From IMG/VR virus record IMGVR_UViG_3300033148_007251, positions 11,280 to 75,279 of that record: a stretch of DNA of 64,000 nt; one strand, 5' to 3'. How positions within the stretch are numbered: position 1 is the first letter of the stretch; each line of letters begins with the position of its first letter. Source of the stretch: a virus. This document shows, piece by piece, positions 1-15,043 of the stretch. The notes below the pieces were generated by a model. That model was given only the letters and a program-made list of their open reading frames with translations, did not search any database and was not told the origin of the DNA. A program made the position numbers and the translations under genes.

Positions 1-216
1 TAAATCTTGTATGGTGTCTTCTTTGATATTTTTTGTGTTTTTGTTTCGGATTCGTGATAGTTTGTCATCAATTCTGACATAAATTTGCTCAATGTTATTA
101 CTTTCGCTAAAGATGCGCACTGGTTCAAGAGCTGAATTTCCATATTCTTTATTCTTCTTTAATAGTAATTCTTTAACTGCATTACATTCTTCTATAATCA
201 TTTTTTGTGTATTCAT
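1..216 (-). CDS. DUF1599-like (nucleotide-modification-associated) protein, truncated by window edge
   Basis: Manual translation MNTQKMII...KKNKEYGNSA...RIDDKLSRI...EDTIQDL; ATG overlaps the upstream TAA (TAATG). Confidence 0.7.
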   Translation of the reverse strand, partial: MNTQKMIIEECNAVKELLLKKNKEYGNSALEPVRIFSESNNIEQIYVRIDDKLSRIRNKNTKNIKEDTIQDL

Positions 217-1055
217 TATATTTCCTTTTCTGGTAATTGAACATCTGCATAAACTTTATTTTGCTTGATGCTACTAATAGTTGTTTGATGGGTATTAAAT
301 TTTTTAGCTATAATTTTTTGAGAAAAGCCTTTTGATAACATTTTTCGCATTTCTAAAATTTGATTTTTGGAAAATTTATGATTTCCTTTTGGTAAATTTT
401 TTAAATTTATTCTTGGTGTTTGCATCTCTGAATAATGCCTACCAGTTTTAATATCAGAGATAGTGGTTCTATGAACATTAAATTTTTTAGCAATATCTTT
501 TTGAAGAAGTCCGTTTTTTAATAATTTTCGTATTTCTAAAATTTGGTCAACAGAAAAAATTTTTTGTACATCTGACATTTTTTTACGAATTCTTTTAGAT
601 GGATTTTGATGAGCTATTGATAATTTTTTGCGAGTTTCTTTAGAGACCATTTTGTTTTTGTGTACTTTTGATATTTTTTTACGAGTTTCTTCAGATGGAT
701 TTTTAAGAGCGATAGATATTTTTTTTCTTGCTTCTTTGGACATTTTATACCCATCTATTCCTTCTCCTCCGTCTGTAAGATTATAGCCATTAGTCACTTT
801 GGTATTATATAATTTGATAAACTCAATTTCCATTTTACATAACATATTCCATGAATTACAATAACAAATTATCTCATGCGTAAATTTTTCTTTACCATGT
901 TTTTTGATAGATCGATGCAAATATTGGCAACACTTATTAGCATTAAAATGATTTCTCATTCGGGATTTATAATCACCAGTAATACCAATATAGGCTTTTC
1001 CGCTATCAATATTGGTAATTTTATAAACAACGAATTCTTTAGTTTTATTTTTCAT
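216..1055 (-). CDS. GIY-YIG homing endonuclease with NUMOD3 repeats and C-terminal HTH repeats
   Basis: VVYKITN...YIGIT motif, GYNLTDGGEG, SxETRKKIS repeats; likely start is ATG 1055 because the TTG at 1070 belongs to the promoter motif. Confidence 0.9.
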   Translation of the reverse strand: MKNKTKEFVVYKITNIDSGKAYIGITGDYKSRMRNHFNANKCCQYLHRSIKKHGKEKFTHEIICYCNSWNMLCKMEIEFIKLYNTKVTNGYNLTDGGEGIDGYKMSKEARKKISIALKNPSEETRKKISKVHKNKMVSKETRKKLSIAHQNPSKRIRKKMSDVQKIFSVDQILEIRKLLKNGLLQKDIAKKFNVHRTTISDIKTGRHYSEMQTPRINLKNLPKGNHKFSKNQILEMRKMLSKGFSQKIIAKKFNTHQTTISSIKQNKVYADVQLPEKEI

Positions 1056-1060
1056 ATTGT

Positions 1061-1070
1061 TATTATACAA
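1061..1070 (-). promoter_or_regulatory. TTGTATAATA promoter motif; exact copies also at 45465, 49565, 52604, 54308, 54527 and 61871
   Basis: Seven exact intergenic copies found by eye, all on the minus strand upstream of replication-arm genes or RNAs. Confidence 0.8.
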
Positions 1071-1076
1071 GATTTT

Positions 1077-3155
1077 TTATATTTTATATAATTTACGATT
1101 TTTAAATTCTTCTAATTTCCCTTTATTGAAATTTTTTACTGGCCTTATATATCCGACAACTCTGCTATAAACTTCTGTCTCTGCCCCGCATTTAGGGCAG
1201 GATGCCTTTTCTCCAGGAATGTATCCGTGAGATTGACAAACGCTAAAAGTCGGTGTTAATGAAAAATAAGGCAGCTTATAATTTGTCGCCACTGTCTGAA
1301 TTAGGTTTTTAACGGTTGTTGTATCGGTGATTTGTTCACCAAGGAATAAATGCACCACAGTGCCTCCAGTATATTTTGTTTGGAGTTCATCTTGCAAACT
1401 CAACATTTCAAATACGTCATCCGTATAATTTACTGGAAGCTGGGTTGAGTTAGAATAAAATGGTTCAGCCCCATTTTTATAATCACTTTCATTTGCACAA
1501 ATGATATCAGGATGTTGTTTCTTATCTTTTAAAGGCAAACTATAACTAATTCCTTCACCAGGTGTTGCCTCTAAGTTAAAAATATCACCTGTTTCTTTTT
1601 GTGTCTCTACAAGCAAAGTTCTTAGATGATCCATTATTTCAACAGCAAACTTTTGCCCTTGTTCACTTCCGATATCTTGTTGAAAAAGATTCAGGCACAA
1701 TTCATTCATACCAATAATACCGATTGTTGAAAAATGGTTTTTCCAATAATAACCAGTTCTTTTTTTTGTATCACCCAAATAGAATTTCGAATACGGGTAT
1801 AAATTGTTTTCTGTGAATTTTTCAAGTATTTTTCTTTTTATCATAAGTGATTTGACTGCCGTTTGATATGTTTTTTCTAATATATCAAAACAATCTTCTT
1901 TGTTTTTTGCAACGTATCCTATTTTTGGAAGGTTAATTGTCACAACCCCGATTGAACCAGTCATCGGTGAACTGCCAAATAGGCCTCCGCCTCTGATATC
2001 AAGGTCTTTGTGTGACAATCGAAGCCTACAGCACATACTGGTAACTTGTTCAGGATCCATATTTGAATTTACAAAGTTACTAAAATAAGGAATTCCATAT
2101 TTGCCTGTCATCTTCCATATCATCTCAAGATTAGGGTTATCCCAGTCAAAATCCTTAGTGATGTTATATGTTGGTATGGGAAATGTAAAAACCCTGCCCC
2201 TTGCATCGCCTTCCATCATTACTTCAGCAAATGCCTTGTTAATCATGTCCGCTTGATGTTGAAATTGAGAATATGTAAATTTTTTATAATCTCCACCAAT
2301 AATTACTGGTTGATCTTTTAGTGTAGATGGTATTTGTAAGTCTATGGATATATTGCTAAAAACACTTTGAAAACCGACTCTTGTAGGAACATTCATGTTA
2401 AAAATAAATTCTTGAATTGCCTGTTTTACCTGATCATAACTTAAACTATCAAAATGTACAAATGGTGCTAAAAGAGTATCAAAATTAGACACAGCCATCG
2501 CTCCTGCAGACTCGCCCTGAAGTGTATAAAAAAAGTTTGTTAGCTGCCCTAATGCTGATCTCAAGTGTTTCGCTGGAGCACTTGCTACTTTGCCTTCAAC
2601 TCCAGTAAATCCTTTCAATAACAAGTCTTGTAAGCTCCAACCGCAGCAATAATTTGATAATAAGCCAAGATCATGAATATGAAAATCACCTCTTTTGTGA
2701 GTATTTCTAATTTCAGGCGGATAAATTTTGTTTAGCCAGTATTCAGAGGTTATGCCGGATGAAATATAATTGTTTAACCCTTGCAAAGAATAGCTCATAT
2801 TGCTATTTTCTTTAACTTTCCAGTCCGATTTAGAAATATAATTGTTCATGAAATCAATATTTGTTTTTGTTACAAGGCTTCTTATTTGTGAGTGTTGCTC
2901 TCTGTATATTATGTATGCTTTGGCTGTTTTTTTAAATGGTGAATCAAGCAATATATTTTCAATAATATTTTGAACATCTTCTACAGCAATATTATGATTG
3001 TTGTCTAAGAGTGATAATACCCTTAGTGTATATTTTTTTGCTATTATTTCTTTGAATTCACCAGTTGCTTTGCCAGCCTTAAGAATAGCATTTGTAATTT
3101 TTTCAGAATTAAAAGAGACTACTTTGCCGTTTCTTTTTGTTATTTTGTTGATCAT
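1077..3155 (-). CDS. nrdD: Anaerobic (class III) ribonucleoside-triphosphate reductase with ATP cone
   Basis: N-terminal ATP cone (KRNGKVVSFNSEKI), YCCG, SMCCRL, CxxH..CxxC zinc site, glycyl-radical loop YSRVVGY. Confidence 0.95.
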   Translation of the reverse strand: MINKITKRNGKVVSFNSEKITNAILKAGKATGEFKEIIAKKYTLRVLSLLDNNHNIAVEDVQNIIENILLDSPFKKTAKAYIIYREQHSQIRSLVTKTNIDFMNNYISKSDWKVKENSNMSYSLQGLNNYISSGITSEYWLNKIYPPEIRNTHKRGDFHIHDLGLLSNYCCGWSLQDLLLKGFTGVEGKVASAPAKHLRSALGQLTNFFYTLQGESAGAMAVSNFDTLLAPFVHFDSLSYDQVKQAIQEFIFNMNVPTRVGFQSVFSNISIDLQIPSTLKDQPVIIGGDYKKFTYSQFQHQADMINKAFAEVMMEGDARGRVFTFPIPTYNITKDFDWDNPNLEMIWKMTGKYGIPYFSNFVNSNMDPEQVTSMCCRLRLSHKDLDIRGGGLFGSSPMTGSIGVVTINLPKIGYVAKNKEDCFDILEKTYQTAVKSLMIKRKILEKFTENNLYPYSKFYLGDTKKRTGYYWKNHFSTIGIIGMNELCLNLFQQDIGSEQGQKFAVEIMDHLRTLLVETQKETGDIFNLEATPGEGISYSLPLKDKKQHPDIICANESDYKNGAEPFYSNSTQLPVNYTDDVFEMLSLQDELQTKYTGGTVVHLFLGEQITDTTTVKNLIQTVATNYKLPYFSLTPTFSVCQSHGYIPGEKASCPKCGAETEVYSRVVGYIRPVKNFNKGKLEEFKNRKLYKI

Positions 3156-6051: not shown

Positions 6052-7998
6052 TTATTTTTCTCTTTTATTTTTTAAAATGTTTATTAAATCATTAAATATA
6101 TTTGTTGATTTTGTTATTTTACCATCTAAAATTTGATCAACAACGATGGCTTTTTCTTTTAATAGTGACATAATATCTTCTTCAATTGTATTTTGGCTAA
6201 CAAGATAATGAATATTAACGTTTTTTTTTTGGCCAATTCTATGGCAGCGATCTTCAGCTTGAGAAAGGGTTCCGGGTTCCCATGGATATTCCAAAAAACA
6301 AACATTTGATGAAGCGTTCAACGTAAGGCCTGTTCCAGCGGATTTGATATTTCCAACAAATAACTTGATTTTAGGGTCAGTTTGAAATTTATCAACGGCG
6401 GTTTGTCTTTTATTTGATGGAGTTGATCCATCAATTTTGACAGTCATTTTAGGAAACTCTTTGATTAATAAATTAATTGTTTTTTTGTGAATAGCAAATA
6501 TAACCAATTTTTGATCACTTTCTAAAAAATTATTTATCCATTTGATACATTGTTTAAACTTTCCATTGATAGAAAGTTGTTTAAGCTTTTCAAGGGATGT
6601 CAATGCCTCTGCTTTTTTTGCCTTTTTTGCTTTTTCTTCTCCTTCGTGTTCTTTAATCCAATCGATGATATTGTTTTCTGCCTTTTTGTATTCTTTAAAA
6701 TTATCAATTTTAATTGGTATGATTGATTTGGTTTTTGGCGGTAGTTCTTTTAATACATCTTCTTTTTTGCGTCGGATCATAATAGACTTTGTTAAGATTT
6801 TATGCAATTCGAGAATATTGCTTGAGCCAGAAAAATCCCATCCCCAAGAATTATGTTTTAAATCGCAATATTTTTTTGCGAAATTCCATCTATTTGGGAA
6901 TAATCCTGGGTGGATGATCCTGATAATATTAAAGAACTCAATCGGTCTGTTTATAATTGGAGTCCCGGATAAAGCGATAACCCGCTTTATCTTTTTACAC
7001 AAAGATATTGTTGTTTTGGTTCGTAAAGCTCCGTTGGTCTTAATATAATGAAACTCATCTAAAATAATTATTTCTGCTCTTAGTGCCTTAAGTGTAGGTG
7101 TCCACGTTGATAAGATGTCATAATTAATAATATAGATGTCAACGTGAGGGATCGGATACATTTTTTTACCGCTGATTATATGAATAGTTTCTTTTTCCAT
7201 CCACGCCTTGATTTCATTTGCCCAGTTTTGCTTGAGAGAGGAAGGGCAAACAATTATAACCGGTCTTAATTTTTTATTAAGTTGAGCATATCCAAGGGCT
7301 TGAACGGTTTTACCAAGTCCCATCTCATCAACTATAAGTGCTCTCCCTTTATTGTTTTTAATAAAAGAAACACCTTCTTTTTGAAATTGATATAGTTTCT
7401 TTTTTAAACCGGGTATTGAAAAATTTGTAATCAGTTTTTTTTCAGAGGTGATATCCTCATACCAATTATTTAGATTTTCACAAAGGTTAAATTTAAATTC
7501 TTTGAGTTTTTTGACAGCTTCAACAGACACAGGGCATTTCCAGCACTGTTCTTTTTTTACAAATTTATATCCTGGAAGTGTTTTGATTTTAAGGATTGTT
7601 TTTTTGAATCTTTCATCGCCATAAGGATATTTAAACTTGATAATAATAGAATTTTTCTGCCTCTCAGCGATTTTAATAATATTCAGCTCCTCTTGTTTAG
7701 TACCATCGAATCCAAGGTCTTTGATTTTTTCTAATGTTATTCCAACCTTTAATAATTGATTTACATATTTTGGCATTGCTTTTCGTAAATACCATTTTTG
7801 TCTGTCGTCGAGTTCAAGCCCCTCCATGTCTTTTTTGGCAATAGCGAATAGAAAGCCAGAGTCTTGATTGTTAAAAGTTACCTTATTGTCACCATTGGTT
7901 TGTAGGGCATGCATAGCCATAAGCGCGCCCAGTGCCATGCATTCATCATTTTTGATTAAGTCCATTAACTTTCGTGTGTTTTTATCCATTGAAATCAC
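6052..7998 (-). CDS. SNF2-family helicase/translocase (SMARCAL1/HARP-like)
   Basis: DEMGLGKT, LDEFH, LSGTP, QAEDRCHRIGQ. Confidence 0.92.
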   Translation of the reverse strand: MISMDKNTRKLMDLIKNDECMALGALMAMHALQTNGDNKVTFNNQDSGFLFAIAKKDMEGLELDDRQKWYLRKAMPKYVNQLLKVGITLEKIKDLGFDGTKQEELNIIKIAERQKNSIIIKFKYPYGDERFKKTILKIKTLPGYKFVKKEQCWKCPVSVEAVKKLKEFKFNLCENLNNWYEDITSEKKLITNFSIPGLKKKLYQFQKEGVSFIKNNKGRALIVDEMGLGKTVQALGYAQLNKKLRPVIIVCPSSLKQNWANEIKAWMEKETIHIISGKKMYPIPHVDIYIINYDILSTWTPTLKALRAEIIILDEFHYIKTNGALRTKTTISLCKKIKRVIALSGTPIINRPIEFFNIIRIIHPGLFPNRWNFAKKYCDLKHNSWGWDFSGSSNILELHKILTKSIMIRRKKEDVLKELPPKTKSIIPIKIDNFKEYKKAENNIIDWIKEHEGEEKAKKAKKAEALTSLEKLKQLSINGKFKQCIKWINNFLESDQKLVIFAIHKKTINLLIKEFPKMTVKIDGSTPSNKRQTAVDKFQTDPKIKLFVGNIKSAGTGLTLNASSNVCFLEYPWEPGTLSQAEDRCHRIGQKKNVNIHYLVSQNTIEEDIMSLLKEKAIVVDQILDGKITKSTNIFNDLINILKNKREK

Positions 7999-8255: not shown

Positions 8256-9032
8256 TTATTTAAATTTAGCTCTACTAAGATTAGCTCCACTAAGATTAGC
8301 TCTACTAAGGTTAGCTTCACTAAGGTTAGCTCTACTAAGGTTAGCTTCACTAAGGTTAGCTTCACTAAGGTTAGTCCAACTAAGATCAGCCCAACTAAGA
8401 TCAACTCTACCAAGGTTAGCTTCACTAAGATCAGTCCCACTAAGATCAGTCCCACTAAGATCAGCTCTATGAAGATCAGCTCCACTAAGATCAGCTTCAC
8501 TAAGATCAGTCCCACTAAGATCAGCTCTATGAAGATCAGCTCTATGAAGATCAGCTCCACTAAGATCAGCTCTATGAAGATCAGCTCCACTAAGATCGGC
8601 TCTATGAAGATCAGCTCCACTAAGATCGGCTCTATGAAGATCAGCTCCACTAAGATCGGCTCCACTAAGATCGGCCCAACTAAGATCACCCCAACTAAGA
8701 TCAGTTTCACTAAGGTTAGCCTTATCAAGGTTAGCCCTACTAAGATCACCCCAACTAAGATCAGTTTCACTAAGGTTAGCCTTATCAAGGTTAGCTTCGT
8801 TAAGGTTAATCTTACTAAGATCAGCTCTACCAAGGTTAGCTTCACTAAGATCAGTCCCACTAAGATCCGCCCCACTAAGATCCGCCCCACTAAGATCCGT
8901 CCCACGAAGATCAGCCCCACTAAGATCAGCTCTTATTTTAATAGCATTTCTTAGAGTTTTTCTTATTGTTTTTAAATTATCTTCGAATATTATTTTTTGA
9001 GTTTTTTTATGTATTATTTTCATAATTTTCAT
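8256..9032 (-). CDS. Pentapeptide repeat protein
   Basis: Continuous A(D/N)LSG/ADLHR pentapeptides encoded by 15-bp DNA repeats. Confidence 0.9.
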   Translation of the reverse strand: MKIMKIIHKKTQKIIFEDNLKTIRKTLRNAIKIRADLSGADLRGTDLSGADLSGADLSGTDLSEANLGRADLSKINLNEANLDKANLSETDLSWGDLSRANLDKANLSETDLSWGDLSWADLSGADLSGADLHRADLSGADLHRADLSGADLHRADLSGADLHRADLHRADLSGTDLSEADLSGADLHRADLSGTDLSGTDLSEANLGRVDLSWADLSWTNLSEANLSEANLSRANLSEANLSRANLSGANLSRAKFK

Positions 9033-9039
9033 TTTACCT

Positions 9040-9537
9040 TTATGAGTTTATGGTAAATTTAATTTCATTCAAAGTTTTGTCAATAATTTTCTTCTTCCAT
9101 CCTATTTTGACTAAGTATTTGGATAATTGATATACACTTAGTTTGGATTTAGGAATCATATTTATCAAATCTTTTGGGGCATCAAAAATAATAGCAACTA
9201 TATCTTTCGCTTCATTTGTCATTTTGTTTAGGGAGTCTTTAAAGATACATCTCTTTTCCTGGTTACCGCCATCAGTACTGTTAGTTTCTTCTATAAACTC
9301 ACAAGAGATATGCTTATTTTTATTTTGATTATTCTTTGTGATAATATTTTTGAATCTATTTTCTACTGATGAAAACAATAATGTTGAGAATTGTCCTTTT
9401 TTTGAATCATGTAGGGGAAAGCATTCTGCAAATAAAAGATTACATTCCCCCACAGCATCATCAAGTTCCGTATGAGACCTGGTGTGCCATTTCCATGCCT
9501 GCTTTTGTATCATTTTTGAATAATCTTGATATTCCAT
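9040..9537 (-). CDS. Phage sigma70-family (region 2) sigma factor-like protein
   Basis: MIQKQAWKW...ELDDAVGECNL...HDSKKGQFSTLLFSSVENRF resembles sigma region 2; start set at MEYQD behind a GGAG RBS. Confidence 0.7.
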   Translation of the reverse strand: MEYQDYSKMIQKQAWKWHTRSHTELDDAVGECNLLFAECFPLHDSKKGQFSTLLFSSVENRFKNIITKNNQNKNKHISCEFIEETNSTDGGNQEKRCIFKDSLNKMTNEAKDIVAIIFDAPKDLINMIPKSKLSVYQLSKYLVKIGWKKKIIDKTLNEIKFTINS

Positions 9538-9562
9538 TTTTGTTGCTCCCTTTTTGTTTAGT

Positions 9563-12500
9563 TTAATGTAATGTCTGTCCTTCATTATTAACTTCGCAAA
9601 AATCCTTTGATGTAACAGCATATGCGTATTCTTGTTCAGACACTACATCTATTAATGCATTCCAGTCAATTTCCCCATAATTAAGAGGGATATTATGCAA
9701 AACTATATATTTGGCTCGTATTCTATCTTGCCCATAAACATCATCATCATAATAAGGGTTTTCATAAAATTTAAAACTTTTTGTTATGTTGTATTTCATT
9801 TGTTGCCATCCTTTTTAATGATTATATTGTTTCTATTTCGCAGCCATCACCCCAAGTATCAGCAAGAGCCCAATTAACAGCGTGGCGAAGTTCGTTTTTA
9901 TTTGCATTTGGAAAATAATGAATGAGGTATTCAGTACAATCATTAATAATATTTCCTGAATAATGTTTCATGTCTTGCAGTGCTTTGGCTGCAGCGTTAT
10001 AATATTTTTTGTTATAATTTTTCATATTATTTTCTCTTTTTTAATTATATTTTTTATCTAATGTTTTTAAAAATGCCTTTAAAGATGCCTTTGATAATTT
10101 ATTTTCACTTTTATCTTTTTCTATTATTAATTCCTGGTTAAAGACTTCATCATAGGCTTCGGCCATTGATTCAATATATTGTTTATAATTTTTCATTTTT
10201 TTATATCCTCTTGAAGATATTATTGAGTTTGCGCGCTGCTTTTTTTCTTAATACCTCATTTATCATTCGTTTGTGTTCACTCTGACTAAAATATAATTTT
10301 TTTTCTTTTAGGTTTGTTAATTTTTTTTGTCTTTTCATTTTTTATTTACCTCCTTAAGGTTTATGGTTCAAACAAACAGAATTGGTATCCAAGCTATAAC
10401 TATTGCCAGAACTAAAATTATGCAAAATGTCACAAAACAGATTGCCGAAATATCATAAAGTTTAGCCGATTTTTTCTTTTTGTAGGTTTTCGTCTTTTTG
10501 GGGTTAGGATACCTATTTAAATAATCAGATGTTTTTTTTACAGCGATATTAAGATTTTGTTGATTTACCATGAACTATCTCCTTTTTATATAATGTAGAT
10601 TATTTTTTTGTTCTGTAAAAATTTTATATAGCCCGGGGCGTAAATCTTCCATAAGTTGTTTTTCTTTTTCCGTGTACGTGATCCCGAATTTCTGTTCGGT
10701 AGAGAACATCATTCTTATATTGTTTTCTGCCATCACTGTTCTTGCATCATGTGTTTTTTTGTAATGTGTTATTTTTCATGTCGTCCTCTTTCTTACGATG
10801 TATAGTTTCGCTCATCATCGACATTGTGCGTTAATACATATTCACAATCACGAAAGTATATCCATGCCTTCCATCGAGCAAAAAAACTTAATTTATATTT
10901 GACTGAACATCCAATAGTTATTGCCAGCCGTTCCATTTCTTTAATACTTGGCAAATTGTTAATGTAAGTGTTTTCAATTTTTGTTATTAATTCTAATAAA
11001 TTCATGATTCCTCCTATACCAGTTTTACAAGTTTATAGAAGAGCTTTACGATATTTCCATCATCATCCCTAATCATAACGTGCTCACTTTGCACGTCTAT
11101 TTCGAGTAAATGTCCCATTTTGCCAGTATCTACATTCTGACCAAAACCTTTATTGTCATATATTCGTACCCTTTGTCCGTAATAATTCTTCATTTTATGC
11201 CTCCATCTATGCCTTTAAAATTGTCTTTTCTAAAATAGATACTGTTTTGTAGGTCATACTTTACTGGATTTTTACGGTATAACTCCCAAACCTCTATACC
11301 GTCCATGGTGCTATTCCTTACGCCATAGTTTTTAATAGTATCCCCAAAAAAATGCATATTTGATCTTGTAAAATGATAAGGTGCCGTGTGTCTTGTCTGA
11401 TATTTTAATTCTAACGGGGTCATATTAATCCCTCCCTTTGTTGTCGATTTCTTTAAGCTCGCATAGTTCAAAAACATAATCAGGTACCCATGTGTTGCCT
11501 ATAAGTGCCTCCCCATCCTTAAATTCTTTCACGTCATAGACCATGCCGGTCATAAATGCCATTACGTTTTCTTGGCCAAGTTCTACAACATACAATTGTT
11601 TACATAGTCTTTTCATAATGCCTCCTTTATATTCATTTTTTGTAATTCTATTATTCGTTTTGTTAATTCCACAATAGTGAATGGATACCATTCACCGTTT
11701 GGTTTGAATCTACGACATAAAACATTATTAATTACTTTTTCTTCATAATACATAATATCTCCCCTCCTTTATGCCATGAAGTAGTTGTCTTCTTGCACAA
11801 CCCTGTTATAAATTGTTAGAAAATCCAATGTATCAATGATATTTACATTTGATTGTTTAATAGGTTTCTCATTCAGGCATTTAAAAACACCTGGATGTAA
11901 GTCTTCAAGCATGTTTATTTCGGCTTGAGTGTATGTCCCGCCAAATCCTGCCATAAGCTTTTCATTTGTGACTATATTCTTTTTTGCTTTCTTTGTACAG
12001 GAACTGTGTATTTTTGCCATGTTGATTTGTTTCTTAATTTCTTGCATTGTCATTTTATCACCTTTATTAATGAGTTTAAAATTTATTATATGATTTATCC
12101 TTTTTGCCATTATTATTTTCTTTGATTTTGTCATGTTATATCTCCTTTTAATTAAATTACAAACTCCAATATGGTTTTTTATTTCAAATTATCCCATAAT
12201 GTTTTTACCGATATATAATGCTAACTTATTTAGTGCAAGTAATAGTTGTTTTTTTGTAATTTTATTCCCATTTTTAATACGTTTCATTAACAGCGTCTAA
12301 TTTATCCATAAGCATTTCGATATGTTTTGTTTTCTGTACTCCTAATATAGATTCAATTGATACGTTTCCATGTAACAGTTGAACTTTATACACTTTATTT
12401 TGGGCTAACCATATTTCTTTTTTTTCGTTTATCATAGCATCCATATTATTTTGTCTCCTTTTTAAGGGTGTTTCGATTTCAAAAATCTATTGCCTGTTTT

Positions 12501-13011: not shown

Positions 13012-13065
13012 AGTGTTTCGATCTTTAAGATCTCATCAGTGACAGTCACATAACAGCCAGACACT
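13012..13065 (-). ncRNA. Type III hammerhead ribozyme (HH-B)
   Basis: AGUGU-C|UGGC-uguuaugugacu-GUCA-CUGAUGA-GAUC-uuaaa-GAUC-GAA-ACACU; intact core and three stems; predicted cut between 13060 and 13059. Confidence 0.88.
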
Positions 13066-13112
13066 AAGAGCAGTTTAATGACTTGCTGAGGTCATTATAT
13101 TAGATTGTAATG

Positions 13113-13280
13113 TTACTGAATAATTTTTGCTGCCCAATCTGGAACATCCACTTCTTTGCCAGATTTATTTGTAATTTTATAATATCTACCATTATTGCCA
13201 ATCTCAATGGTAGCACTATAAATTTCTTTTTTTGTAATTCCCAACCAGCTTATTAATGTATCTGTTATTATGATTTTCAT
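13113..13280 (-). CDS. 55-aa hypothetical protein between the two hammerheads
   Basis: MKIIITDTLISWLGITKKEIYSATIEIGNNGRYYKITNKSGKEVDVPDWAAKIIQ; AGGAGG RBS; below the ORF-track cutoff. Confidence 0.75.
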   Translation of the reverse strand: MKIIITDTLISWLGITKKEIYSATIEIGNNGRYYKITNKSGKEVDVPDWAAKIIQ

Positions 13281-13298
13281 AATGCTCCTCCTTTTTAA

Positions 13299-13354
13299 TA
13301 ATGTTTCGATTTATAAAATCTCATCAGTAACAGTAATATAACTGTTAGACACTA
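13299..13354 (-). ncRNA. Type III hammerhead ribozyme (HH-A)
   Basis: UAGUGU-C|UAACAG-uuauauua-CUGUUA-CUGAUGA-GAUUU-uau-AAAUC-GAA-ACAUUA; predicted cut between 13348 and 13347. Confidence 0.92.
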
Positions 13355-13573
13355 AGAGCATCCATTAGCTTGCCTTATATAATAAGGTAGAGGCATCCTG
13401 GTATGTCCATTCGGTTCTCAATGCTGTTAGGTTTTTAGTAACCCTGCATGATGGAGTCCTTGACTATTTGTCGAGGCGTCTATTTTTTTATTTCAAACAA
13501 GATGTTTTTTAATGGGTTTACTTGCTGGCACCGTTTCCCGTGTGCCTCTTGTTTGTTCTTGTTTATATAGTAC

Positions 13574-13589
13574 TGCAAACCGTGTGCCA
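13574..13589 (-). promoter_or_regulatory. Sigma54 (-24/-12) promoter
   Basis: TGGCACACGGTTTGCA, exact GG-N10-GC spacing, intergenic. Confidence 0.75.
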
Positions 13590-13730: not shown

Positions 13731-13828
13731 CTGGACAGTCATACACTTTTGTAAATATTTATAATAGAATCAATATATTATAAGATGAATACTCTAAATC
13801 ATACACTCCTGGACAGTCGTACACTTTT
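13731..13828. repeat. 20-bp direct repeat CTGGACAGTC(A/G)TACACTTTT x2, candidate enhancer sites, with an IHF-consensus site between them
   Basis: Copies at 13731-13750 and 13809-13828 (19/20 identical); AATCAATATATTA at 13768-13780 matches WATCAANNNNTTR. Confidence 0.55.
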
Positions 13829-13836
13829 TAACCCTA

Positions 13837-14208
13837 TTATAGATCCTCAAACCATATAATTTTTTTCTTATCTACTATGTTAGGTTTAATATCTTGTTTT
13901 GACTTAGGTTTAAATATTGGTGTTTCAATAGGCTGTGTGTCAATAATGGCCCGTGGTATATATTCTACATAATCATTAATATATTCTTTTATTTGATTTA
14001 CTGGCCAAAACCACTCCCCTCTAATGTGATATGTGGCAAAGCTTCTGTGCAACTCTTGTTCAAATCCTATATCTCCATCAATAGCTTTGATTATAGTTAA
14101 TTGTTCCCATGAACCCGTTTGTAATTGTTTTAGTCTATCATTTATATCTCTACTTGTGTACCCGATTTTAATTGGCCCTGATGTCCCACTTTGTATAAAG
14201 TATATCAT
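13837..14208 (-). CDS. T5orf172/MUG113-type GIY-YIG domain protein
   Basis: IYFIQ...IKIGYT...RLKQLQTG...EQELH..F...RGEWF. Confidence 0.85.
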   Translation of the reverse strand: MIYFIQSGTSGPIKIGYTSRDINDRLKQLQTGSWEQLTIIKAIDGDIGFEQELHRSFATYHIRGEWFWPVNQIKEYINDYVEYIPRAIIDTQPIETPIFKPKSKQDIKPNIVDKKKIIWFEDL

Positions 14209-14435: not shown

Positions 14436-14451
14436 AGCAAGATTAATGCCA
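14436..14451 (-). promoter_or_regulatory. Sigma54 (-24/-12) promoter
   Basis: TGGCATTAATCTTGCT, GG-N10-GC. Confidence 0.7.
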
Positions 14452-14690: not shown

Positions 14691-15043
14691 TGATCCGGTA
14701 AAATTTCTATTTAAGACCTGTATACCGGCTATCAAAGTAACAACAGGCATCGGTTGGCTAACCGGTACAATAAATTCAAGCTATCCAATTTCAAATGGCA
14801 TTTGTATCCGTCCATTTGGCCCCGTTCCTGCAACCCAGGGGATCATTGTGAATAAAGAGATTATTTGGAATCTCTTTGCCTCAGTTAAGACAGAACTGGA
14901 TGAGGGCAATCGTTTTGTAAAAAGCGATTCAAACACAATGCGTTTTTTATATGAACTTATGACACGAAGTTGACGACACATACGGCAAAAACAATATCCC
15001 CCTATTTTAAATTTATTTTTTTTAAATTTAAAATAGGGGGATA
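14691..15043 (+). ncRNA. Candidate large structured non-coding RNA
   Basis: Dense nested inverted repeats downstream of a promoter, no credible ORF, ends in a long hairpin. Confidence 0.45.
14996..15043. terminator. Long inverted repeat (terminator or cruciform)
   Basis: TATCCCCCTATTTTAAATTTA...TAAATTTAAAATAGGGGGATA. Confidence 0.6.

Follow-up and report, generated by a model that had tools for sequence, protein, structure and literature searches.

What do two hammerhead ribozymes do on either side of a single small gene in a phage genome? We addressed this question for a locus in a 64,000-nt stretch of viral DNA (hereafter, the window), taken from an IMG/VR virus record that is complete at 75,279 bp and carries direct terminal repeats. 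The record represents an uncultivated phage. A blastn search of GenBank phages returned no close relative, and a search with the portal protein gave no more than 32% identity. A sequence-only reading of the window had proposed that the two ribozymes excise the gene between them as a self-joining, circular mRNA, and had placed the locus in an 'early operon', a label that is presumptive.

Two type III hammerheads and the genes behind them

Both hammerheads lie on the minus strand. The first (HH1) spans positions 13299-13354, with a predicted cut between 13348 and 13347, after C13348; the second (HH2) spans 13012-13065, with a predicted cut between 13060 and 13059, after C13060. The cut-to-cut distance is 288 nt. 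By direct reading, HH1 consists of a 6-bp stem III (UAGUGU/ACAUUA), a stem I of 6-7 bp (UAACAG(U)/(A)CUGUUA), a CUGAUGA core at 13327-13321, and a 5-bp stem II (GAUUU-UAU-AAAUC) that is followed by GAAA. HH2 also has a CUGAUGA core, with 5 bp each in stem III (AGUGU/ACACU) and in stem II (GAUCU-UAA-AGAUC, again followed by GAAA), and its stem I (UGGC-U.U-GUU/GAC-GUCA) comprises 4+3 bp with one U.U mismatch. Each copy carries a GUC cleavage triplet and follows the type III plan, in which stems I and II are capped by loops and stem III is open. We judged the motifs by the core positions and the three core-adjacent pairs that served as acceptance criteria in Perreault 2011 (PMC3088659). Core positions C3-A9, G12-A14, A15.1-U16.1, and H17 showed no deviation in either copy, and the core-adjacent pairs N1.1-N2.1 and N10.1-N11.1 are U-A and G-C, respectively, in both. 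The sequence-only reading had described two complete minus-strand type III hammerheads with GUC triplets and CUGAUGA/GAAA cores, cut at 13348 and 13060 and enclosing a ribosome-binding site (RBS) and a 55-aa ORF; it was right in this anatomy and in all of these coordinates. The predicted energy of the hammerhead fold is -8.8 kcal/mol for HH1 and -9.8 kcal/mol for HH2, versus minimum free energies of -11.0 and -10.9 kcal/mol, respectively.

A search with Rfam models, put forward with the sequence-only reading as a check, bore out the motifs in part. The type III model (RF00008, Hammerhead_3), whose gathering score is 48.5 bits, matched HH2 at 35.5 bits (E = 1.8e-7 per genome) and HH1 at 28.6 bits (E = 1.5e-5 per genome). 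Both copies were therefore matched in E-value mode alone, and an Rfam scan of the window at the gathering threshold was empty. The same model gave no match at E <= 0.01 for L021 and L144/L145, hammerhead loci from the survey described below, despite their canonical cores and stems. This shows that the Rfam type III model under-detects phage type III hammerheads. Since it misses other clear viral examples too, the sub-threshold scores of HH1 and HH2 reflect the training set of the model more than the motif. A type III descriptor, run over both strands of the window (128 kb), gave exactly two matches, HH1 and HH2; across 200 dinucleotide shuffles the mean was 0.015, and no shuffle held two or more. 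Type I and type II models applied to the 75-kb genome found nothing further, so that HH1 and HH2 were the only hammerheads found.

An alignment of the two copies showed ~80% identity over ~95 nt, including ~30 nt upstream, and, judging by this alignment, HH1 and HH2 are paralogs. Upstream hairpins at 13387-13373 and 13096-13077 were considered as a conserved part of the module and were rejected because the alignment shows no homology between them. Where HH1 has A:U at stem I pair 2 and U:A at stem II pair 4, HH2 has G:C and C:G, respectively; helix-preserving covariation between the paralogs is thus present in stems I and II. These compensatory changes agree with the earlier claim that the two stems differ between the copies yet still pair. 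Other stem differences comprise two G:U-type changes and one disruptive change, the U.U of HH2 stem I. Despite differences at 8 of 29 stem positions elsewhere (counted from the alignment), a 13-nt sequence, UGCUCUUAGUGUC, is identical before both cuts. On the minus strand it occupies 13348-13360, covering the HH1 stem III 5' strand and 6 nt upstream, and 13060-13072, covering the HH2 stem III 5' strand. Across 27 viral type III examples among the matches listed, which were selected for pairing, stems vary freely.

Each ribozyme is followed by a small gene with a strong Shine-Dalgarno sequence (SD). Inside the 288-nt unit, the SD AGGAGGAG (13292-13285, minus strand) precedes a 55-aa ORF (ORF55; ATG at 13280, stop at 13115-13113). 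Directly downstream of HH2, the SD GGGAGG (13006-13001, minus strand) precedes a 90-aa ORF (ORF90; 12990-12718). From the end of stem III to the ATG there are 18 nt for HH1-ORF55 and 21 nt for HH2-ORF90, with the SD in between. The ORFs are putatively coding, a status suggested by their length and by their strong SD and ATG signals. Neither belongs to a Pfam or PHROG family, each matched only itself among 5.8 billion proteins, neither has relatives in IMG/VR, and in the ESM Atlas they fall into unnamed small viral clusters only. On the basis of these searches, ORF55 and ORF90 are orphan genes. The ribozyme pair around ORF55 can equally be read as two consecutive ribozyme-RBS-gene modules.

The ribozymes sit in a run of small genes read leftward, with the structural module starting on one side of it (~15.5 kb, plus strand) and the replication genes, which include an SNF2 helicase gene (6052-7998), on the other. 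Also on the minus strand are genes for a pentapeptide-repeat protein (8256-9032, Pfam E = 2e-89) and for a 193-aa protein (9040-9621) that has a weak, below-cut-off match to sigma-70 region 2 (E = 0.004) and no IMG/VR relatives. Upstream of HH1 lies a gene for a T5orf172/MUG113 (GIY-YIG-related) protein (13837-14208, minus strand), of which three distant relative loci were found, none with hammerheads. For ~480 nt after this gene, the minus strand holds no ORF of 40 codons or more. Within this gap, and in the same orientation as the ribozymes, is a sigma-54-type promoter match, TGGCACacggtTTGC (13575-13589, minus strand). It is the sole perfect match in the window to the sigma-54 core TGGCAC-N5-TTGC, and it lies ~225 nt upstream of the HH1 cut. 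A search of the phage for a sigma-54 activator domain found no clear candidate, the best PF00158 match scoring 14.5 bits. An 18-nt direct repeat, AAGTGTAYGACTGTCCAG (13731-13748 and 13809-13826, minus strand), is situated 140-250 nt upstream of the sigma-54-type match and could be an enhancer site. With a sigma-54-type match in an ORF-poor gap, HH1 is probably part of a transcript leader whose start is ~215 nt before the cut, or of read-through RNA from the upstream gene. Farther upstream, we noted another sigma-54 near-match (14437-14451, minus strand) and a 20-bp perfect hairpin followed by a T-run (14996-15042, minus strand). The latter is terminator-like and lies in the divergent region between the leftward small genes and the rightward structural genes.

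Hammerheads before gene starts in other viral genomes

A pattern for this hammerhead subtype, run over IMG/VR, returned 19 loci. In all 16 of the 19 that have enough downstream sequence, a start codon follows the ribozyme at a distance of 15-41 nt, usually with an SD, and every locus has one hammerhead except L016, which carries an extra type I copy. A broader pattern returned at least 118 loci in IMG/VR. Among the matches listed, the 77-79 non-redundant viral type I and type III hammerheads have a median distance of 23-31 nt to the next gene start, and 62% of the surveyed hammerheads are within 45 nt of a maximal-ORF start, versus 17% of random same-strand positions. Arrays of 2-4 hammerheads, spaced 183-1700 nt apart and each placed before a small gene, occur on 15 of the 72 hammerhead-bearing locus-strands among these matches. 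Again among the matches listed, arrays comparable to HH1/HH2 are found on 14 other viral locus-strands, and a single hammerhead before a gene start is a commoner state than an array. Because the placement of a ribozyme before a gene is recurrent, the arrangement in the window is an ordinary instance of a phage layout. The position of hammerheads in viral contigs, immediately before gene starts and often in arrays, supports a general processing role.

The survey also yielded several observations on array structure and on the mobility of the modules. Type I hammerheads form arrays of 2-4 before successive small genes in L026 (positions 1-1400, plus strand), L111 (minus), L139 (plus), L053 (minus), and L080/L141 (minus). 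All members of such an array have the same open stem I (e.g. GUCUAA/UUAGAC), and stems II and III have diverged with compensation. The released 5' end in L026 is UUAGAC, followed by aaucaaGUCUAA in three of the four modules, so this end could refold into its own hairpin after cleavage. Near-identical hammerhead-plus-SD blocks (...GAAACACUUAGCCUGAGGAGGCA...) stand before unrelated ORFs in different viral contigs, in one group made up of L003/L006/L007/L017 and another of L009/L011/L014/L016. Apparently the ribozyme-RBS block moves or recombines on its own, whatever gene it serves. In metagenome contigs, a hammerhead-specific pattern found one unrelated, Bacteroidota-like locus in two records, L144 (2448-2499) and L145 (11679-11730), both on contigs of ~1 Mb. 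Here the distance from a canonical type III hammerhead to the ATG downstream, which has no SD, is 17 nt, and a nearby Flavo-1 RNA suggests a Bacteroidota-like genome. This layout without an SD indicates that the ribozyme-before-gene arrangement occurs also in SD-poor hosts.

Probable transcript processing and alternative explanations

We consider it likely, with a probability of roughly 0.7, that HH1 and HH2 are functional type III ribozymes in the 5' UTRs of ORF55 and ORF90, where they would process a leftward multi-gene transcript in a RiboJ-like manner. A module of ~95 nt would have been duplicated to give HH1 and HH2, each of which would cut 3' of its GUC during or after transcription. The HH1 cut would remove the upstream leader (~225 nt, given transcription from the sigma-54-type promoter) or, alternatively, the T5orf172 message from upstream, and the HH2 cut would part ORF55 from ORF90 and the genes after it. 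The upstream product of a cut would end in a 2',3'-cyclic phosphate. Because the type III topology keeps the ribozyme body on the downstream product, the ORF55 and ORF90 messages would start with a 5'-hydroxyl and would be paired from their first nucleotide, in stem I; stem II would follow, and then, 7-11 nt past the ribozyme on each message, an exposed SD. In bacterial mRNA decay, the 5'-end-dependent nucleases RNase E and RNase J favour single-stranded 5'-monophosphate ends. Given this preference, paired 5'-OH ends should stabilize the messages and uncouple them from upstream sequence. The outcome would be single-gene or sub-operon mRNAs whose stability and translation are independent of upstream context. 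We infer that cleavage takes place in vivo and that it affects message stability and translation. Counted against the processing reading are the sub-threshold Rfam scores, the U.U mismatch in HH2, and an alternative helix that sequesters the core and is favoured by 1-2 kcal/mol.

The circular mRNA that had been proposed for this locus would derive from the excised 288-nt RNA (13060-13347, minus strand), which would comprise the HH1 body, the SD, ORF55, the 3' UTR, and the HH2 5' strand with its cyclic phosphate end. This 3' end (...UGCUCUUAGUGUC>p) would pair with the HH1 stem III 3' strand, and the nick would be closed by the hammerhead reaction run in reverse or by RtcB of the host. The accompanying claim that joining the ends rebuilds an intact hammerhead holds: because the 13 nt are identical before both cuts, the joined ends recreate HH1 exactly. 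That these 13 nt have stayed identical while other stem positions differ makes a circle possible in principle, and the ends left by hammerheads are circularisation substrates in retrozymes and viroids (PMC7761336; PMC6765202). By our own count among the matches listed, other viral contigs hold 20 adjacent hammerhead pairs, of which 9 are end-compatible, and the L026, L111, and L139 arrays combine an identical open stem with diverged closed stems. However, in 6 of the 20 pairs a type I hammerhead neighbours a type III one, which rules out self-templating, and in two more the stems are incompatible (among the same matches). The 13-nt identity is explained also by paralogy together with the alternative helix of this locus, and a single hammerhead before a gene being the common state, a pair is not needed. 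Folded as a circle, the 288-nt piece has an energy of -47.2 kcal/mol with 56% of it paired (z = -1.6 versus 200 shuffles) and adopts no rod-like fold; HH1, once rebuilt, would accordingly be prone to cut again. Searches of the phage for RtcB and for an Rnl2-type ligase found neither, and circular or spliced products from tandem prophage hammerheads were not detected by Perreault 2011 (PMC3088659). If such a circle did form, it would be small, translatable, and exonuclease-resistant, the first circular RNA of a dsDNA phage to be both ribozyme-derived and protein-coding, and the open-helix identity with closed-helix divergence in phage arrays would reflect selection for end-compatibility. We regard its formation as unlikely: no test run here backs the headline of a self-excising circular mRNA, and each hammerhead is better explained singly, as a 5'-UTR module.

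The alternative helix could also make the ribozymes conditional switches, in which the conserved CUCUUAGUG upstream vies for pairing with the CUGAUGAG core and, in the case of HH1, with the SD as well, such that cleavage and translation are gated by transcription speed, a factor, or Mg2+. In the minimum-energy fold of both copies, CUCUUAGUG forms a 9-bp helix with the (Y)ACUGAUGAG core (predicted partners 13348-13358 with 13319-13329, and 13060-13070 with 13031-13041, minus strand), which would hold the ribozyme inactive. When flanks are included, GAUGCUCUU is predicted to pair with the ORF55 SD region, though pairing with the SD is weak in HH2. With duplex energies of -6.6 kcal/mol and -8.3 kcal/mol, the helix ranks with the strongest in the 27 type III viral hammerheads among the matches listed; the gaps to the active fold are nevertheless small (1-2 kcal/mol), and these energies cover secondary structure without tertiary contacts. 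As a general feature, an alternative-helix attenuator is ruled out by a mean of -3.3 kcal/mol versus -2.9 kcal/mol in shuffled sequences (Wilcoxon p = 0.7), and we keep the switch as a locus-specific, improbable alternative. A different view makes the hammerhead-plus-SD block the boundary of a mobile or recombinogenic cassette, that is, a shared homology patch for swaps of small genes, with cleavage being secondary. The two groups of near-identical blocks before unrelated ORFs fit this view, as do the inconstant identity of the flanked genes (Perreault 2011, PMC3088659) and the status of HH1 and HH2 as paralogs that flank orphan genes. Yet a homology patch could do without an intact catalytic core and without compensatory changes that keep the stems paired; we find the cassette view quite unlikely, and it is compatible with a processing role. 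Inactive look-alikes or decayed relics that do not cleave would account for the scores of both copies under the Rfam gathering score, the HH2 stem I mismatch, and the AU-rich stems. They are very improbable in view of cores without deviation in either copy, two copies versus 0.015 expected by chance, the compensatory substitutions between the copies, and the insensitivity of the Rfam model to this subtype, as seen from the clear viral examples that it missed. Transcript processing remains our preferred reading, and the pair most likely cuts a long transcript up into messages of one gene each.

Comparison with known hammerhead systems

The HH1/HH2 locus joins a known class, the clustered phage hammerheads that were reported in prophages in 2011. 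[quoted passage not shown] Our locus resembles these clusters in having same-strand hammerheads in phage DNA around a single gene or short block, and for the prophage clusters, too, processing to single-gene mRNAs was proposed, with circular or spliced products considered. Unlike them, it lies in the 75-kb genome, bounded by direct terminal repeats, of a free phage that is uncultivated. As known here from sequence, its array is minimal: two members, both type III, that enclose one orphan 55-aa gene, with a possible sigma-54 promoter upstream. Phage hammerheads have been catalogued since 2011, and this locus alone leaves existing knowledge unchanged. A 2019 review (PMC6765202) still lists the biological purpose of phage hammerheads as formally unresolved, with polycistronic processing a suggestion that needs more work.

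Placement before a start codon has a precedent in the HHphage ribozyme of the haloviruses HF1/HF2. There, an early polycistronic transcript has the hammerhead 13 nt ahead of the start codon of its first gene, and a 5' end was mapped to within 3 nt of the cleavage site (Perreault 2011, PMC3088659). HHphage has a variant core and occurs as a single copy in an archaeal virus, whereas HH1 and HH2 are two copies with canonical cores. Retrozymes and viroid-like circular RNAs share with our locus a unit of a few hundred nucleotides bounded by type III hammerheads in direct orientation, with ligatable 5'-OH and cyclic phosphate ends that would rebuild one ribozyme. They differ from it in that the phage locus is a single-copy dsDNA locus that encodes a protein with an SD, and its 288-nt unit has no rod-like or branched self-complementary fold. 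Retrozymes are multicopy or replicating elements; here we found two hammerheads in a 75-kb genome and no relatives elsewhere.

The closest functional parallel is RiboJ, an engineered hammerhead between promoter and RBS, which in E. coli raised protein 2-10 fold and transcript ~2 fold when placed upstream of the RBS (PMC6206723). As in RiboJ, the ribozymes of our locus stand directly 5' of an RBS. When RiboJ cuts itself, the variable RNA upstream is lost and the message keeps a structured leader with a 5'-OH; the same is expected of HH1 and HH2, and by analogy expression might be higher and independent of context (PMC6206723). HH1 and HH2 differ from RiboJ in being natural, in occurring twice in series within an operon, and in having no added 3' hairpin. 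With two ribozymes, two small genes, strong RBSs, and a likely promoter in ~650 nt, the locus is a compact, canonical test case, suited to asking whether natural ribozyme-RBS modules insulate or boost expression as RiboJ does, and whether a circular product is formed.
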